From an uncultured Planctomycetaceae bacterium (GTDB taxonomy: Bacteria; Planctomycetota; Planctomycetia; Isosphaerales; Isosphaeraceae): DNA of 64,000 nucleotides. The DNA lies in assembly GCA_963833985.1 (NCBI GenBank), contig CAWIAD010000002.1:1856001-1920000 (forward strand), in the 5' to 3' direction. The notes beneath the pieces are model-generated. The model did not search any database. It was not told the DNA's origin and was given only the letters and a program-made list of their open reading frames with translations. Positions 2,027 to 58,638 of the stretch are shown here, piece after piece. How positions within the stretch are numbered: the stretch's first letter is position 1; each line of letters starts with the position of its first letter. The translations under genes were made by a program, and so were the position numbers.

Positions 2027-2056
2027 CGAACTGAACTGAGTTGAACTGAATTGAAC
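2027..2056 (+). repeat. Imperfect pentanucleotide repeat (TGAAC)x6 in the tdh-kbl spacer
   Basis: cgaac tgaac tgagt tgaac tgaat tgaac. Confidence 0.7.
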
Positions 2057-2077
2057 CGGAGCGGGAGCCTCTTGACG

Positions 2078-3260
2078 ATGTACGGCGCCATCCAGCAGCA
2101 CCTTGCCGACCAGCTCGAGCAGATCCGCAACGCCGGCCTGTGGAAGGGCGAGCGCGTGCTCAGCTCACCCCAGCAGGCCCACGTGGGAGTTGGTGCGCGT
2201 TCGGATGTTCTGAACATGTGCGCCAACAACTATCTCGGCCTGGCCGATCATCCCGAGGTGGTGCAGGCCGCGCGCGGCCCTGGAGCGCTGGGGCAACGGC
2301 ATGGCGTCGGTTCGCTTCATCTGCGGGACCCAGGAGCCGCACAAGGCGCTGGAGCGGGCCATCTCGGAGTTCCTGGGCACCGAGGAGACCATCCTCTATT
2401 CCTCATGCTGGGATGCCAACGGCGGCCTCTTCGAGACGATCCTCGGGGCCGAGGATGCCGTGATCTCCGATGAGCTCAACCACGCCTCGATCATCGACGG
2501 CATCCGCCTCTGCAAGGCCCAGCGGCTGCGCTACAAGAACACCGACATGGCCGACCTGGAGGCGAAGCTGCTGGAAGCCGGCGATGCCCGGTTCAAGCTC
2601 ATCGCCACCGACGGCGTGTTCTCGATGGACGGCATCATCGCCGACCTCCAGTCGATCTGCGACCTCGCCGAGAAGCACGGGGCGCTGGTGATGGTGGATG
2701 ATTCGCACGCCGTTGGATTCCTGGGCAAACATGGCCGCGGCACACACGAGCACTGCAATGTCATGGGCCGGGTCGACATCATCACCGGCACGCTGGGCAA
2801 GGCGCTGGGAGGCGCCAGCGGAGGCTATACCAGCGGCCGGGCCGAGGTCGTGTCGCTGCTGCGCCAGCGGTCGCGCCCGTATCTCTTTTCGAATTCGGTC
2901 GCACCGCCGATTCTGGGCGCCTCGCTGAAGGCGATCGAGATCTGCCGGCGCTCCACCGAGCTGCGCGACCGGCTGGCGGAGAACACGCAATTCTTTCGCG
3001 CGGAGATGACACGCCGCAAGTTCCAGATCGTTCCGGGCGAGCACCCGATCACGCCCATCATGATCGGCGACGCCGCGCTGGCCGGCCGCATGGCCGACCT
3101 GCTGCTGGAACGCGGTGTCTACGCCGTCGGCTTCTCCTACCCCGTGGTCCCCCAGGGCAAAGCGCGCGTGCGCGTGCAGGTGTCGGCCGCGCACAGCCAC
3201 GCGGACCTCGAGTTCGCCATCGAGGCGTTCACGGCCGTGCGGGATGAGCTGGGGATCTGA
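2078..3260 (+). CDS. kbl: Glycine C-acetyltransferase (2-amino-3-ketobutyrate CoA ligase), frameshift near 2275
   Basis: [17 protein letters not shown] in ORF 2051; [23 protein letters not shown] and [10 protein letters not shown] (PLP Lys) in ORF 2301. Confidence 0.93.
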
Positions 3261-3290
3261 TGAGCTGAGGCGCGGCTGACAGTAGGGCAG

Positions 3291-3410
3291 CAGGTCGGGC
3301 TGCGGAGGCGGGTAGGTCGGGCTGCGGGAGCGGGTAGGTCGGGCTGCGGAGGCGGGTAGGTCGGGCTGCGGAGGCGGGTAGGTCGGGCTGCGGGAGCGGG
3401 TAGGTCGGGC
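3291..3410 (+). repeat. 22-bp tandem array (GGGTAGGTCGGGCTGCGGRRGC) x ~5.5 ending in REP-like copy 1
   Basis: Unit starts at 3310, 3332, 3354, 3376, 3398 (period 22), with a partial unit at 3291. Confidence 0.95.
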
Positions 3411-3436
3411 TCACGCCCGAGGTTGGGGGCTTCGCC
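3400..3436 (+). repeat. REP-like element copy 1, GTAGGTCGGGCTCACGCCCGAGGTTGGGGGCTTCGCC
   Basis: GTAG followed by hairpin TCGGGC-TCAC-GCCCGA; near-identical copies at 3679-3715 (-) and 4493-4529 (+). Confidence 0.9.
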
Positions 3437-3625
3437 AGTAGAAAACCACGGCCTTACGGCCGTGGCCGCGTGTGCCGAGCGCCGTGGCCTGTGTGCCGTG
3501 GCCGCGTGTCTCGGGCTTCCAGCCCCTGTCCGGCTGTGGCCGTGTGTATCGGGCCCCACGGCCTCGGGGGGCCGCGGCCGGGTGTATCGGGCCCCACGGC
3601 CTGGCGTCCGTGCCCACGTCCGTGG
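3437..3625 (+). repeat. Second hairpin GTAGAAAA-CCACGGCC-TTAC-GGCCGTGG followed by degenerate GGCCGCGTGT(ATCGGGCCCCACGGCC) repeats
   Basis: Perfect 8-bp stem; the same module recurs at 4530-4640. Confidence 0.8.
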
Positions 3626-3678
3626 ATCATGAGGATGGTGAGCGAAGTGACCATGCCCGTGAGGGCATGGTTCGGACG

Positions 3679-3715
3679 GGCGAAGCCTCCAACCTCGGGC
3701 GTGAGCCCGACCTAC
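3679..3715 (-). repeat. REP-like element copy 2 (inverted relative to copy 1, forming a REPIN-like pair)
   Basis: ggcgaagcctccaacctcgggcgtgagcccgacctac is the exact reverse complement of copy 3. Confidence 0.9.
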
Positions 3716-3853
3716 ACCGCCGACGTGATCCCGACCTACAGTGCCGACGTGATCCCGACCTACAGTGCCGATGTGATCCCGACCTGTGCTGCCGGCGTGA
3801 TCCCGACCTCCTTCTCTGCCGTGATCCCGACTCTTTTCCATGGAATCCCGACC
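3701..3853 (+). repeat. 24-bp period array: conserved GTGATCCCGACC core plus progressively variable ~12-bp segment, x6.5
   Basis: Cores at 3701, 3725, 3749, 3773, 3797, 3821 and a partial core at ~3845 directly before the ATG at 3854. Confidence 0.9.
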
Positions 3854-4387
3854 ATGCGTCCGCGCTACACCACCACCTGCCTCATCGAGCATCACCATGA
3901 GGTGACTCGCTACGAGATCGGAGGGCACACGCACTACAAGCTCGACTATCATTTCGTCTGGCGCACGAAGTACAACCGCAAGCTCCTCGGGCCGGTCTTG
4001 ACGCCCTTCCTGGTCGATGAGGTCGAATCGATCTGCCGGGAGAAACATGTGAAGCGGCTCGGCCTTGCCATCGCCGTCAATCACGTGCACCTCTGCCTGC
4101 GTCTCCGGCCCAGCCAGTCGCCCGCCCAGGTCATGAGCTGGATCAAATCCACAACCAGCAGGAACGCCTTCGAGCGATTCCCGGAGCTGGGTCATCGTCT
4201 CGGCCTGCGGCATCTCTGGGCCACCGGCTATCACGTCGAGAGCCTGGGCGACAAGCCGGTCTTCGCCATCCTGGCCTACCTCGGCCGGCAGGACGAGAAG
4301 CATGACCTGCGCGCGCTGGAGAGCTACATGGACGAGGTGGATCGGTTCCTGCTGTCAAGCGATACGGTGGACGATGAAGCGGAGTGA
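3854..4387 (+). CDS. tnpA: IS200/IS605-family Y1 (HUH) transposase, possibly REP-associated (RAYT-like); no tnpB
   Basis: HYKLDYHFVWRTKY, HUH motif NHVHL, LWATGY, catalytic YxxxQ (YLGRQ). Confidence 0.88.
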   Translation: MRPRYTTTCLIEHHHEVTRYEIGGHTHYKLDYHFVWRTKYNRKLLGPVLTPFLVDEVESICREKHVKRLGLAIAVNHVHLCLRLRPSQSPAQVMSWIKSTTSRNAFERFPELGHRLGLRHLWATGYHVESLGDKPVFAILAYLGRQDEKHDLRALESYMDEVDRFLLSSDTVDDEAE

Positions 4388-4448
4388 GAACGCCCTCAGA
4401 CAGCAGGTCGGGGTGAGGGTAGGGGAGCAGGTCAGGCCAGGGGAGCGT

Positions 4449-4640
4449 GTAGGTCGGGCTGCGGGAGCGGGTAGGTCGGGCTGCGGGAGCGGGTAGGTCG
4501 GGCTCACGCCCGAGGTTGGAGGCTTCGCCAGTAGAAAACCACGGCCTTACGGCCGTGGCCGCGTGTATCGGGCTCCCAGCCCCTGTCCGCCCGAGGCCGC
4601 GTGTATCGGTCCCCACGGCCTCGGCGCCGTGGCCGCGTGC
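4449..4640 (+). repeat. Downstream module: 22-bp units x ~2, REP-like copy 3 (4493-4529), CCACGGCC hairpin and GGCCGCGTGT repeats; direct repeat of 3376-3570
   Basis: 4469-4566 matches 3376-3473 with one mismatch; similarity continues with indels. Confidence 0.9.
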
Positions 4641-55934: not shown

Positions 55935-56744
55935 ATGGTGAAGTCTCGTTTGATCGGTACGGCTGCCGCAGCGCTGCTGGCCAGCACGGCATTCGCCCAG
56001 GCCCCGTCCAAGCAGATGCCGGCCGCTCAGGCCCCGTCGAAGCAGATGCCGACCGCGCAAGCTCCGGCGGCTCCGGCCAAGAGCTATCCCGCGGCGCAGG
56101 CTCCTGCTGCTCCGAGCAAGAGCTATCCCGCGGCGCAGACGCCAGCTGCCCCGAGCAAGAGCTACCCTGCGGCGCAGGCTCCTGCTGCTCCGAGCAAGAG
56201 CTATCCGGCGGCGCAGGCCCCAGCTGCTCCGAGCAAGAGCTACCCGGCGGCGCAGGCTCCGGCTGCCCCGAGCAAGAGCTATCCGGCGGCGCAGGCCCCA
56301 GCTGCTCCGAGCAAGAGCTACCCTGCGGCGCAGGCTCCGGCGGCTCCGGCCAAGAGCTACCCTGCGGCGCAGGCCCCTGCCGCTCCGGGCAAGACCTATC
56401 CGGCGGCGCAGGCTCCTGCTGCTCCGGGCAAGACCTATCCGGCGGCGCAGGCTCCGGCGGCTCCGGGCAAGACCTATCCGGCGGCGCAGGCTCCGGCGGC
56501 TCCGGCCAAGACCTATCCGGCTGCCCAGGCCGGTGCACCTGCGGCGCCCGCCAAGACCTATCCCATGTCTCAGTCGCCGGCTACTCCTGGCAAGACGGGT
56601 TACGCGACACCGGCCGCCCAGGGTGCAACGCCTGCTCCGGCCGCTCCGGCCGCAGCCCCGACCATGGAAGAGCCTCCGCCGGCTCCCCCCGCACCGGCTC
56701 CTCCGGTTCCCAAGCCCGCTGGTGCGGTGGATCGCAAGGTCTGA
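55935..56744 (+). CDS. Exported Pro/Ala/Lys/Tyr-rich tandem-repeat protein, (AQAPAAPSKSYPA)x13
   Basis: Signal peptide MVKSRLIGTAAAALLASTAFA; 39-bp repeat with synonymous third-position variation; followed by a terminator. Confidence 0.85.
   Translation: MVKSRLIGTAAAALLASTAFAQAPSKQMPAAQAPSKQMPTAQAPAAPAKSYPAAQAPAAPSKSYPAAQTPAAPSKSYPAAQAPAAPSKSYPAAQAPAAPSKSYPAAQAPAAPSKSYPAAQAPAAPSKSYPAAQAPAAPAKSYPAAQAPAAPGKTYPAAQAPAAPGKTYPAAQAPAAPGKTYPAAQAPAAPAKTYPAAQAGAPAAPAKTYPMSQSPATPGKTGYATPAAQGATPAPAAPAAAPTMEEPPPAPPAPAPPVPKPAGAVDRKV
56055..56565 (+). repeat. 39-bp coding tandem repeat, 13 copies
   Basis: gcgcaggctcc(t/g)gc(t/g)gctccgagcaagagcta(t/c)cc(c/g/t)gcg units. Confidence 0.92.
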
Positions 56745-56772
56745 GGTTCTGCTGAGCTCCGCATGAACGTGC

Positions 56773-56807
56773 AATCCCCGACCTCACAGGGTCGGGGATT
56801 TTTTTTT
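56773..56807 (+). terminator. Rho-independent terminator
   Basis: AATCCCCGACC-TCACAG-GGTCGGGGATT perfect 11-bp stem followed by a T run. Confidence 0.9.
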
Positions 56808-56948
56808 GGACTGTGGGACAGTGGGGTCCCGCCCTGTGAAGACGCCGATCAATGGCGATCAAGCGATCAAGCGATCTCCACCCATGGCGCGCCTGGTGTT
56901 GCGCTCCGTGGGTGGAGATTGCACACAGCAGCCCACAAAGAACATGGA

Positions 56949-58638
56949 TCACTTCTGGGGCGAGCTCACAGGCACAGGTTGGCTGGAAGCCGGCGGCAGG
57001 ACCTGCCGGACCACGGGAACCTGGCGGGCCACCTGCCGCGTCGTGGTGGTGTAGCAGGTGACCGGCACCGTGTACGGGACCTGCTCCATGACCTGCTGCG
57101 TGACATTCTCCGTCACCTGCTTCGTGCGGTACTGGTAGGTTGTCACCGGCACCGAGTAAGGCACCTGGGTCGCGATCTGCTGTGTGACATTTTCAGTGAC
57201 CTGTTTCTGCCGCGTCTGGTAGGTCGTCACCGGCACGGTGTAGGGGACCTGCTCGGCCACCTGCTGTGCGACGTTTTCGGTGACCTGTTTCTGCCGCGTC
57301 TGGTAGGCGGTGACGGGCACCGTGTAAGGCACACGGACAAAGACCTGCTGCGTCACGTCCTGGGTGACTTCTCGATACTGAGTCACCTGGACCATTTCGG
57401 TCTTCTGCTCGGCCACTTGCACGGTCGTCGTCACCGGCACGGTCTCGCTGACCTGGCTGGCTTGCATGGTGGTCACCGGCGCTTCATACTCCTGGACCTG
57501 CTGCTCGCAAACGGTCTCGTTGACAGTCACGGGGACCATCTTCGTGCGGGTCTCGGGCACCTGGATCGTCTGCTGGCTAGGCACCATCCGGGTCCTGGTC
57601 TGGTTCACGTAGGTCGTCTCCGGAACCTGACGGACGACCGGTCGACTGACGAAGACCTGCTCGTAGGAACAAGTGGTTCCTCCGTACCCATGGGCCACCG
57701 CGCTGTGGCTGCCACACAGGCCGCAGCCTCCGCCGCAACGATGAAGGCACAGGTGCGCAGGTGTTCGGGCAGCTTCCGGCCGGAGCCAGCGATGCCACCG
57801 ATGCGGCCCGGGTTTCATAGCAGCCCTGCTCCTCGACCACCTGCTTCATCGTCGTGACCGGAACGCACTCGGTGTAGGTCTCGGGGACCATGGTGGTCTG
57901 CACCCTGGAGGTGAGAACCGTCTCGGATTGCGGCTGCATGATGGTCCGTGTGACCGGCTTCTGAACCGTGATCACACGCTGCTGCTTGCGCATGGTGGTG
58001 ACGGGGTTGTAGACCGTGCGGGTCACCTGCTGGTTCACCGTCTGCTGCCGGGGCACATACTCGGTATACGTCCGGGGGACGGTGACCATTTCCGCGATGG
58101 TCTTCTTCTCTGGCACGGTCTGGGTTTTGGTGTCGTAGCGGTAGCGGGTCTCGTTGGAGGTGACGGGGACCTGCTCGGTGATGGTGCGCGTGACCGGAAC
58201 GGTCTGGGTCTTGTACTCGGTGCGATAGCGAGTCTCGTTGGAGGTGACGGGGACCTGCTCGGTGATGGTGCGCGTGACCGGGACGGTCTGGTTCTTGTAT
58301 TCAGTGCGGTAGCGGGTCTCGTTGGAGGTGACGGGGACCTGCTCGGTGATGGTGCGCGTGACCGGGACGGTCTGGGTCTTGCACTCGGTGCGATAGCGGG
58401 TCTCCATGGTGGTGACGGGAACCTGCTCGGTCACGGTATCGTAGACGGTCTCATAGACGATCTGGCTCTGGGGAACCGGGCTGGTCGAGGTCTGCGGCTG
58501 GGCCGTCACCGGCGCGGTTGCCGCCTGGGCGGTGGGCTGAACTCCATCGCCGGCTCGTGCCTGACAGCTTGCCATGACGGCCAGAGCCGCAAGCAGCCTG
58601 CATGAGAGGGATCCAGCTTGTCGAAAGACACTTCCCAC
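56949..58638 (-). CDS. Exported Val/Thr/Gln/Pro-rich YTV-like repeat protein with two 28-aa repeat arms; frameshift near 57745
   Basis: Signal-like LLAALAVMASCQARA; N-arm ETRYRTEYKTQTVPVTRTITEQVPVTSN x~3.5; Cys/His/Gly-rich centre; C-arm VPYTVPVTTYQTRQKQVTENVTQQIATQ x~3.5. Confidence 0.75.

Follow-up and report, generated by a model that had tools for sequence, protein, structure and literature searches.

The window, a stretch of 64,000 nucleotides (nt) from contig CAWIAD010000002.1 of an uncultured Planctomycetaceae bacterium (Isosphaeraceae; assembly GCA_963833985.1), carries a gene for an IS200-type HUH (Y1) transposase, tnpA, placed between inverted copies of a 69-nt repeat with three hairpins and accompanied by tandem arrays (Table 1). 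The catalytic motifs of the protein are NHVH (H77-V-H79) and YLGRQ (Y142-x3-Q146), and clade-specific extensions of ~20 aa at the N terminus and ~30 aa at the C terminus were found. No tnpB was present among the neighbouring genes, in agreement with the first-pass annotation, which had been made from the letters alone and had described a TnpA-like open reading frame (ORF) with HVH and YxxxQ motifs. The gene was single copy in the window genome by tblastn. It lies between genes for an S-adenosylmethionine-dependent methyltransferase and for an aminotransferase (PF00155 by Pfam); the latter we take to be kbl-like, following the first-pass annotation.

Table 1. Features at the tnpA locus (window positions)
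Feature	Position	Strand	Description
tnpA	3854..4387	+	IS200-type HUH/Y1 transposase gene, 177 aa
Element copy 1	3402..3471	-	Inverted doublet with copy 2
Element copy 2	3645..3713	+	On the coding strand; read in the putative functional orientation, an NRTG foot and then hairpins A and B (both with GTVA loops), separated by the GNA mini-hairpin
Element copy 3	4495..4564	-	Inverted relative to copy 2; hairpin B towards tnpA
Array 1	3290..3411		22-bp units (5.5) that join the hairpin-B outer arm to ~10 nt of flank; the common GCAG end is kept in the distal unit
Array 2	3700..3853		24-bp units from hairpin B to the ATG, grading from hairpin-like to leader-like
Array 3	4403..4504		22-bp units, 2.9 by Tandem Repeats Finder plus two degenerate distal units
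Degenerate 36-38-bp repeats	3446..3620		Reuse the outer arm of hairpin A, copy 1
Degenerate 37/74-bp repeats	4539..4640		Reuse the outer arm of hairpin A, copy 3

A 37-bp element had been annotated three times beside the gene, at 3400-3436 (+), 3679-3715 (-) and 4493-4529 (+). These positions stand, one copy being inverted, but the 37-mer is only about half of the full unit, the 69-nt element with three hairpins, of which copy 2 also has hairpin B towards tnpA. Searching the genome (10.2 Mb) with a 33-nt core and up to 8 mismatches gave 119 matches, and a profile search gave 128 hits, 121 of them near full length, with conservation extending over ~69 nt. Crude gene calls contained 3 of the 128 copies, compared with 78.5% of random 70-mers. 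The copies were grouped in 68 clusters (35 singles, 23 pairs and 10 larger), in which neighbours are arranged in tandem, head-to-head or tail-to-tail and are joined by shared linker families; the genes flanking the repeat showed no orientation bias. The same arrangement is described for the bacterial interspersed mosaic elements (BIMEs) of E. coli (PMC3333891) and for GTAG families (PMC3733652). The three stems were paired in 98.7% of cells in an alignment of 46 copies, and 8 of the 18 pairs were changed on both sides; this set, from five genomes and four metagenome contigs, was a selection of our own out of the 3 window copies and 81 non-redundant copies from outside, and the counts are inflated by relatedness within it.

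The first-pass annotation had described the elements as GTAG hairpins, and GTAG was considered as their guide. The four bases before the core were GCAG in 29 of the 119 copies, GCTG in 29, ACTG in 15 and CCGG in 11, and GTAG in 3, all three at the tnpA locus; GTAG was likewise not among the common 5' ends in the three other sets examined. GTAG as a guide was therefore rejected, the loops also favouring the other strand. The small middle loop on that strand is mostly G-N-A, which forms a stable mini-hairpin in DNA when closed as C-GNA-G. The two large loops read GTGA, GTCA or GTAA, as do those of repetitive extragenic palindromes (REPs) whose strand is fixed by a GTAG foot (DoleA01, Table S1 of PMC6006769). 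Because of this match and of the mini-hairpin, the folding strand would be the reverse of the one first written down, with an NRTG foot, and GTAG would be incidental. The strand bias of G.T wobbles agreed with the reversed strand (121 to 6), a bias that concerns the window genome alone and is not independent evidence. A junction of right and left ends with a four-base guide, as in IS608, was considered and dropped; by eye, no foot-linker pairing was constant across variants. At G000:C2:98717-98745 hairpin A occurs by itself as an almost perfect palindrome, footed on either side, and resembles published double-foot REPs.

The window TnpA scored 95 bits against the NCBIfam IS200 model (cut-off 55) and 27.4 bits against the model for REP-associated tyrosine transposases (RAYTs; REP_Tyr/RAYT, NF047646; cut-off 80). 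The Y1_Tnp core is full length. A fold search with the predicted structure (mean predicted local distance difference test score, pLDDT, 70.6) returned ISDra2 TnpA as the best match (E 2.7e-10), with IS608 TnpA also among the best and a weak match to TnpA-REP (4ER8; 1.3e-4). Fifty-three relatives were found at 57-84% identity, and a fall in profile score from ~300 to 125 bits among full-length proteins marks a discrete clade, one member of which comes from a named strain (WP_165220555.1). Y-x3-Q was conserved in 41 of 42 aligned members. The 6 other Y1 genes of the window genome are of the YxxxNP or YxxxNA types and go with other repeats. Since Pro86, which follows the HUH strand, is conserved in at least 90% of the clade and the matching proline is reported to contribute to the dimer interface of IS200 enzymes, whereas monomeric TnpA-REP has another residue there (PMC3479197), TnpA of this clade is likely to be a dimer.

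Phylogeny was inferred from 49 rows chosen from 155, with groups labelled by motif without named reference sequences. The TnpA clade (support 100/100) fell on the class-1 side, apart from the six RAYTs of the window genome (100/99) and outside canonical IS200 (100/98); it shares an open fork with two further sets, the subclass-1.2-type proteins (98/95) and other proteins with Y-x3-Q-x2-HH. A quick tree of all 155 rows gave the same picture at lower support (IS200 split, SH-aLRT 83). The comparison with IS200 and RAYT groups that had been proposed as a check places the clade outside canonical IS200 and outside the RAYTs. The open frame continues upstream of tnpA at 3470-3853, through element copy 2 and the 24-bp array; the database protein for the gene has 250 aa, and similar read-through starts were seen in some homologues. 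These starts are probably gene-caller artefacts. A search for sigma-70 promoters found 0.

The layout resembles that of the REPtrons, in which a class-2 TnpA-REP/RAYT enzyme is paired with REPs or BIMEs (PMC6006769, PMC3333891, PMC3479197; PDB 4ER8): a single-copy Y1 gene has inverted hairpin repeats on both sides, and the repeats are dispersed and extragenic, occur as doublets, tandem units and mosaics, and persist where the gene is missing. Unlike REPtron enzymes, the present clade has YxxxQ instead of YxxxNP and groups with class 1, while the repeat packs three hairpins into 69 nt and lacks a conserved GT[AG]G foot (NRTG on the opposite strand). Class 2 membership was excluded by motif, foot and tree. 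With the TnpA of IS200/IS605 (subclass 1.1; IS608, ISDra2) the protein shares HUH and YxxxQ, the full-length Y1_Tnp core, an NCBIfam IS200 score above cut-off and its best sequence and fold matches. It differs in being encoded by a single-copy gene with no tnpB neighbour, in its terminal extensions, in its place outside the canonical clade, and in having inverted 69-nt multi-hairpin flanks and ~120 stand-alone copies instead of small subterminal one-strand hairpins; copy number, ends and tree excluded canonical IS200 membership. The earlier description of an IS200-type protein with REP-like flanks is supported by the IS200 profile and the inverted hairpin repeats, as is that of a domesticated-looking system distinct from both canonical RAYTs and canonical IS200 (profiles, flanks, divergence and tree).

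Subclass 1.2 (Quentin 2018, PMC6006769), with flanks of the Acido-Lenti-1 type (RF01687), is also of class 1, has low copy numbers and bears a C-terminal tail; it is likely the same as IS200 group 3 of Bertels (PMC5581495). Of five subclass-1.2-type loci scanned, four matched Acido-Lenti-1 with scores exceeding the gathering threshold, the matches being inverted around the gene in the same way, and the flanks of such genes in Isosphaeraceae share a GNA mini-hairpin, an ARCC linker and a GTNA-loop hairpin with the present repeat. Subclass 1.2 is marked by a shorter core and a conserved C-terminal domain of ~30 aa; in the present clade the core is full length, and the tail aligned loosely with those of 7 subclass-1.2-type proteins. 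The two groups are separate well-supported clades within the open fork, with 28% profile identity. Y-x3-Q-x2-HH occurred in 1 of 42 members of the present clade, most having KH (hence Y-x3-Q-x2-KH) or RH, and in place of the WQ motif of subclass 1.2 the Trp is followed by G, S or A. Compared with Acido-Lenti-1, the present repeat has an extra 5' hairpin and no RF01687 match. The pair would be a sister system to subclass 1.2/Acido-Lenti-1, with its own clade and its own repeat. Subclass 1.2 is listed without REP in the classification of Quentin (PMC6006769), and Bertels et al. mention an IS200 group that lacks duplicates and whose flanking 16-mers are abundant (PMC5581495). The subclass-1.2-type genes of the family flanked by RF01687 matches were L022, L024, L025 and L026, which suggests that the Acido-Lenti-1 Rfam motif is a REP-like DNA repeat.

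The nearest group by profile consisted of HH proteins of other phyla. P0058, P0066, P0068, P0074, P0075, P0080, P0081, P0083 and P0088, all with Y-x3-Q-x2-HH, were closest to the clade, and two of them bear names from Poribacteria and Dehalococcoidia. The nearest profile matches also included IS200-like proteins with a double domain and 270-295 aa (P0060, P0064, P0073, P0086, P0087, P0097 and others); no fused longer forms were found at E 1e-20 among 8000 candidates of 421-2000 aa, which is weak evidence.

Class 3 (Quentin 2018, PMC6006769) is likewise rare, partly planctomycete, of ~178 aa with NHVH, and flanked by atypical hairpins with GTVA loops; it was proposed there as an intermediate between insertion sequence (IS) and REPtron. 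Its members carry Y-x4-Q and go with just one hairpin, bulged and footed by CnGA, whereas the present clade has Y-x3-Q and another repeat, unlike the class-3 rows of Table S1. Membership was excluded on these two grounds, and two motifs of the class-3 kind gave 0 and 1 matches in the window genome. The TIRtrons, or TIRYTs (Di Nocera et al. 2013, PMC3733652; subclass 2.1), also have the gene within long inverted repeats that are found elsewhere too, some of them double palindromes, but their proteins are of class 2, mostly with a helix-turn-helix tail, and their GGGGWSAS motif was not seen in the consensus of the present repeat.

Ten homologous loci were collected from genome and metagenome scans, an eleventh (L038), a weak partial match, being dropped; titled records were from Isosphaeraceae or Planctomycetota. 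The repeat was present on both sides of the gene at 10 of 10 loci, as detected with a model partly built from those same loci. The nearest upstream copy had the window orientation in all ten and the nearest downstream copy was inverted in nine, one of them weak. Among 86 Y1 loci of the window and related genomes, the repeat was found at both clade loci (2/2) and at 1 of 84 others, which belongs to an IS200 present in multiple copies. Of 121 family genomes, 5 had the gene and 16 (pattern) or 29 (model) the repeat, and all 5 gene carriers had the repeat. Clade members were absent from 400 other genomes sampled from the phylum, where a search with the nearest sister group's profile brought up nothing but IS200-like genes. 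No plasmid record among 72,556 exceeded 60% identity; 8 were listed at 31-38%.

The repeat could instead be a structured RNA or regulatory element whose pairing with the gene is incidental. Its strong covariation, its occurrence in 24 genomes without the gene and the status of the related Acido-Lenti-1 motif as a small RNA in Rfam would fit. This is nonetheless very improbable given the fixed inverted layout at the 10 loci and near-absence at other Y1 genes, the unbiased orientation of flanking genes, the three-base GNA loops, which are a feature of DNA hairpins, and the failure of any Rfam family to match the repeat in the window stretch or in 5 repeat-bearing loci. The single-copy IS200-type tnpA between inverted 69-nt repeats probably encodes a domesticated RAYT-like enzyme that spreads the repeat, the tandem arrays being likely secondary and lineage-specific.

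The gene lies beside the same methyltransferase gene as in the window at L033 and L034, where nucleotide identity to the window was 78.7% and 79.8% for tnpA and 79.1% and 77.8% for the neighbours. The ratio of nonsynonymous to synonymous rates (dN/dS) was 0.08-0.27 over 7 pairs, and tnpA is under purifying selection. One copy of the gene was present in 4 of 5 genomes. In 13 congeners the gene was next to the methyltransferase in none, and kbl was adjacent in 7. Within the kbl-methyltransferase interval, 2 congeners had a whole or decayed element and 2 (G011 and G003; L163:2298-2315 and L166:1472-1489) a hybrid of two half hairpins. The hybrid is possibly an excision footprint joined in mid-loop, as would result from loss of the whole segment that the outermost copies enclose; central deletions of this kind are mentioned for REPINs (PMC3116915). 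No further hybrid footprint was recognisable in the window genome.

Several points weigh against a domesticated enzyme that spreads the repeat. L029/L031 and L034/L036 are near-duplicates, which reduces the 10 loci to about 8 that are independent, and the related genomes, too, lack independence. No clade gene was detected in 24 of the 29 family genomes with the repeat; one of these, G004, is 99% complete and has at least 42 copies, but a Y1 gene with the repeat in its flanks was not found there. Gene loss is assumed for such genomes. E. coli strains without tnpA-REP are reported to keep their REPs (PMC3333891). The wobble bias is reversed in G004 (2 to 6), the strand assignment coming mainly from the loops, and both trees left the deep branch order of the class-1 groups open. 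The activity of the enzyme on the repeat is a prediction. G080 has two near-identical loci near contig ends, the second of which may be an assembly duplicate. The gene was found in several different neighbourhoods among homologues, and a 735-bp tnpA cassette (L036:468-1202 and L034:2796-3530) is 98.5% identical with rearranged flanks. It lies within an inverted duplication of the neighbouring gene region and its limits are 2-3 nt outside the element ends; this arrangement may be a natural rearrangement or a chimeric contig. From the shared cassette and the varied neighbourhoods it follows that the gene unit has moved at times and is not strictly immobile.

These last observations suit a low-activity, still mobile IS200-like composite of gene and inverted flanks, with the dispersed repeats as its miniature non-autonomous derivatives, as do the patchy presence of the gene (5/121 genomes), the cassette limits near element ends, and the IS200-type catalytic motif with the conserved Pro after the HUH strand. 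Such a composite is unlikely. There is one gene copy in 4/5 genomes, the exception perhaps an assembly duplicate; tnpA has diverged as much as its neighbours at the shared locus; no plasmid record among the 72,556 exceeded 60% identity; and the clade lies outside canonical IS200. The ends of IS200/IS605 lie on one strand, unlike the inverted flanks found here.

The arrays reported by the first-pass annotation were recovered with Tandem Repeats Finder far beyond chance as 22 bp x5.5 (3292-3411), 24 bp x5.5 (3700-3831) and 22 bp x2.9 (4441-4504). They do lie on the GTAG side of all three copies, as had been stated, but weaker 36-38-bp repeats also occur on the other side of copies 1 and 3. Units at the locus are more degenerate distally. 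The distance from hairpin to ATG is 143 nt in the window compared with 22 nt in the four closest homologues, array 2 representing ~5 extra 24-nt units; it lies between two similar short sequences, the ATG-proximal one of which is also present in L035. Across the window genome, 44 of 114 copies had the outer part of hairpin A duplicated within 60 nt, where shuffled flanks gave an expectation of 0.15, with periods of 21, 23, 33, 36-38 and 55, and the hairpin-B side was duplicated at 9 of 114 (0.25 expected), including the three at tnpA. Another pattern gave 42 and 4 of 109 and missed two of the three copies at tnpA. Arrays were found by Tandem Repeats Finder beside 24 and 38 of 128 repeat copies, against 166 of 2997 other intergenic windows.

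Elsewhere, duplication on the hairpin-A side was seen at 0 of 34 sampled copies in G075 (gene present), 0 of 36 in G004 and 2 of 31 in five congeners. Beside homologous genes it was seen at 0 of 35 elements, and 1 of the 35 had a single partial duplication on the other side. The inverted flanks recur at the homologous loci but the arrays do not, and the layout of three elements with arrays, which the first-pass annotation had proposed to look for in homologues, was found at no homologous locus. Because arrays are absent beside homologous genes and nearly absent from other genomes, array building is not a conserved feature, and arrays and GTAG ends are likely secondary and peculiar to the window lineage. 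Assembly artefacts are scarcely credible as their source: confinement almost to the window assembly and the 2-nt deletion in the neighbouring kbl gene would be compatible with error, but the units differ by substitutions, share families between distant loci and degenerate with distance, and isolated partial duplications like these are also present in G009 (within the 2/31 congener copies) and L029.

The arrays could also be direct products of TnpA, a nick in or next to a hairpin loop priming synthesis and a second nick with rejoining adding a unit of arm plus flank at the element end, so that growth is polarised. This corresponds to the iterative cleavage and rejoining suggested by the first-pass annotation and to BIME amplification with short units; for TnpA-REP such a model is published with whole BIME units (PMC3333891, Fig. 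7B legend). The duplications are anchored at element ends far above expectation on both sides, their periods cluster at 21-24 and 36-38 nt, many copies end near the loop with distal units more degenerate, and all three copies by the gene have them. Canonical REP-type families of the window genome seldom show arrays (three families: 1/68, up to 6/101 and 0/8), and the half-hairpin hybrid with its mid-loop join lies in the same interval in 2 congeners. This origin is rather unlikely, however. G075 has the gene and 119 copies (pattern), yet none of its sampled copies was duplicated; the hybrid was probably one event, with no similar one recognised in the window genome; and independent origins are few, since 30 of the 44 hairpin-A-side duplications belong to one 36-38-bp linker family. 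The breakpoints lie between 12 and 37 nt inside the element, most of them near the loop, and the array junctions gave no constant join and no fixed cut site. Array 2 lies between two natural microhomologies, and an unrelated terminal inverted repeat (TIR) family of the window genome also builds arrays (25-27 of 46). Slippage or unequal exchange seems the likelier origin. More doubtful still is the stronger version in which an IS200-type transposase, domesticated independently of RAYTs, nicks at the loops and adds half-hairpin-plus-flank units, writing polarised arrays at ~40% of its sites.

For the domesticated RAYT-like enzyme the following mechanism can be proposed. The strand with C-GTVA-G and C-GNA-G loops would fold when the DNA is single-stranded, and TnpA, probably as a dimer like IS200 enzymes, would bind it. 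Nicking through Tyr142 and rejoining would move single elements, doublets and attached linkers. By the TnpA-REP rule, the invariant TG of the NRTG foot might select C|A cut sites, a low-confidence prediction. The arrays would most likely lengthen at the ends of hairpins through slipped replication or unequal exchange, and nicks made by TnpA may have started the process.

The route from IS200 transposases to RAYTs that spread REPs is an open question, as is whether it was taken once or repeatedly (PMC5581495, PMC6006769). The REPtrons described so far rely on enzymes of class 2 or class 3, class 1 being listed as IS-type or without REPs. A class-1 enzyme now has a defined cognate repeat showing natural covariation, which makes testable the processing of a REP-like substrate by an IS200-like enzyme, its strand and guide, and the addition of tandem units as in the BIME model. 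A further suggestion is that, among the Rfam-like multi-hairpin motifs of planctomycetes, some are DNA repeats. No description of the clade or repeat was found in the literature searched, which did not extend to subscription papers and ISfinder, and a REPtron-like pairing built on a class-1 enzyme was not found in print.

Other Y1 genes of the window genome were noted. L002 and L004 (G000:C2:3098982 and 2427284) are near-identical YxxxNP genes of the RAYT/TIRYT type with long irregular arrays of an AT-rich terminal repeat. L005, L006 and L007 are three more RAYT genes with REP-type families of their own (~101, 8 and 68 copies); the GTAG-type REP families of this set occur in tandem whole-unit arrays, and some such REPs lie inside linkers of the three-hairpin repeat. 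Compared with congener G011, the kbl-like gene (2051-3260) lacks 2 nt and is thereby broken into two ORFs, through either an assembly error or a recent break. At 55994-58463 several tandem arrays with periods of 30, 39, 24 and 84 nt (multiples of three) and up to 12 copies were found, which are probably coding repeats.

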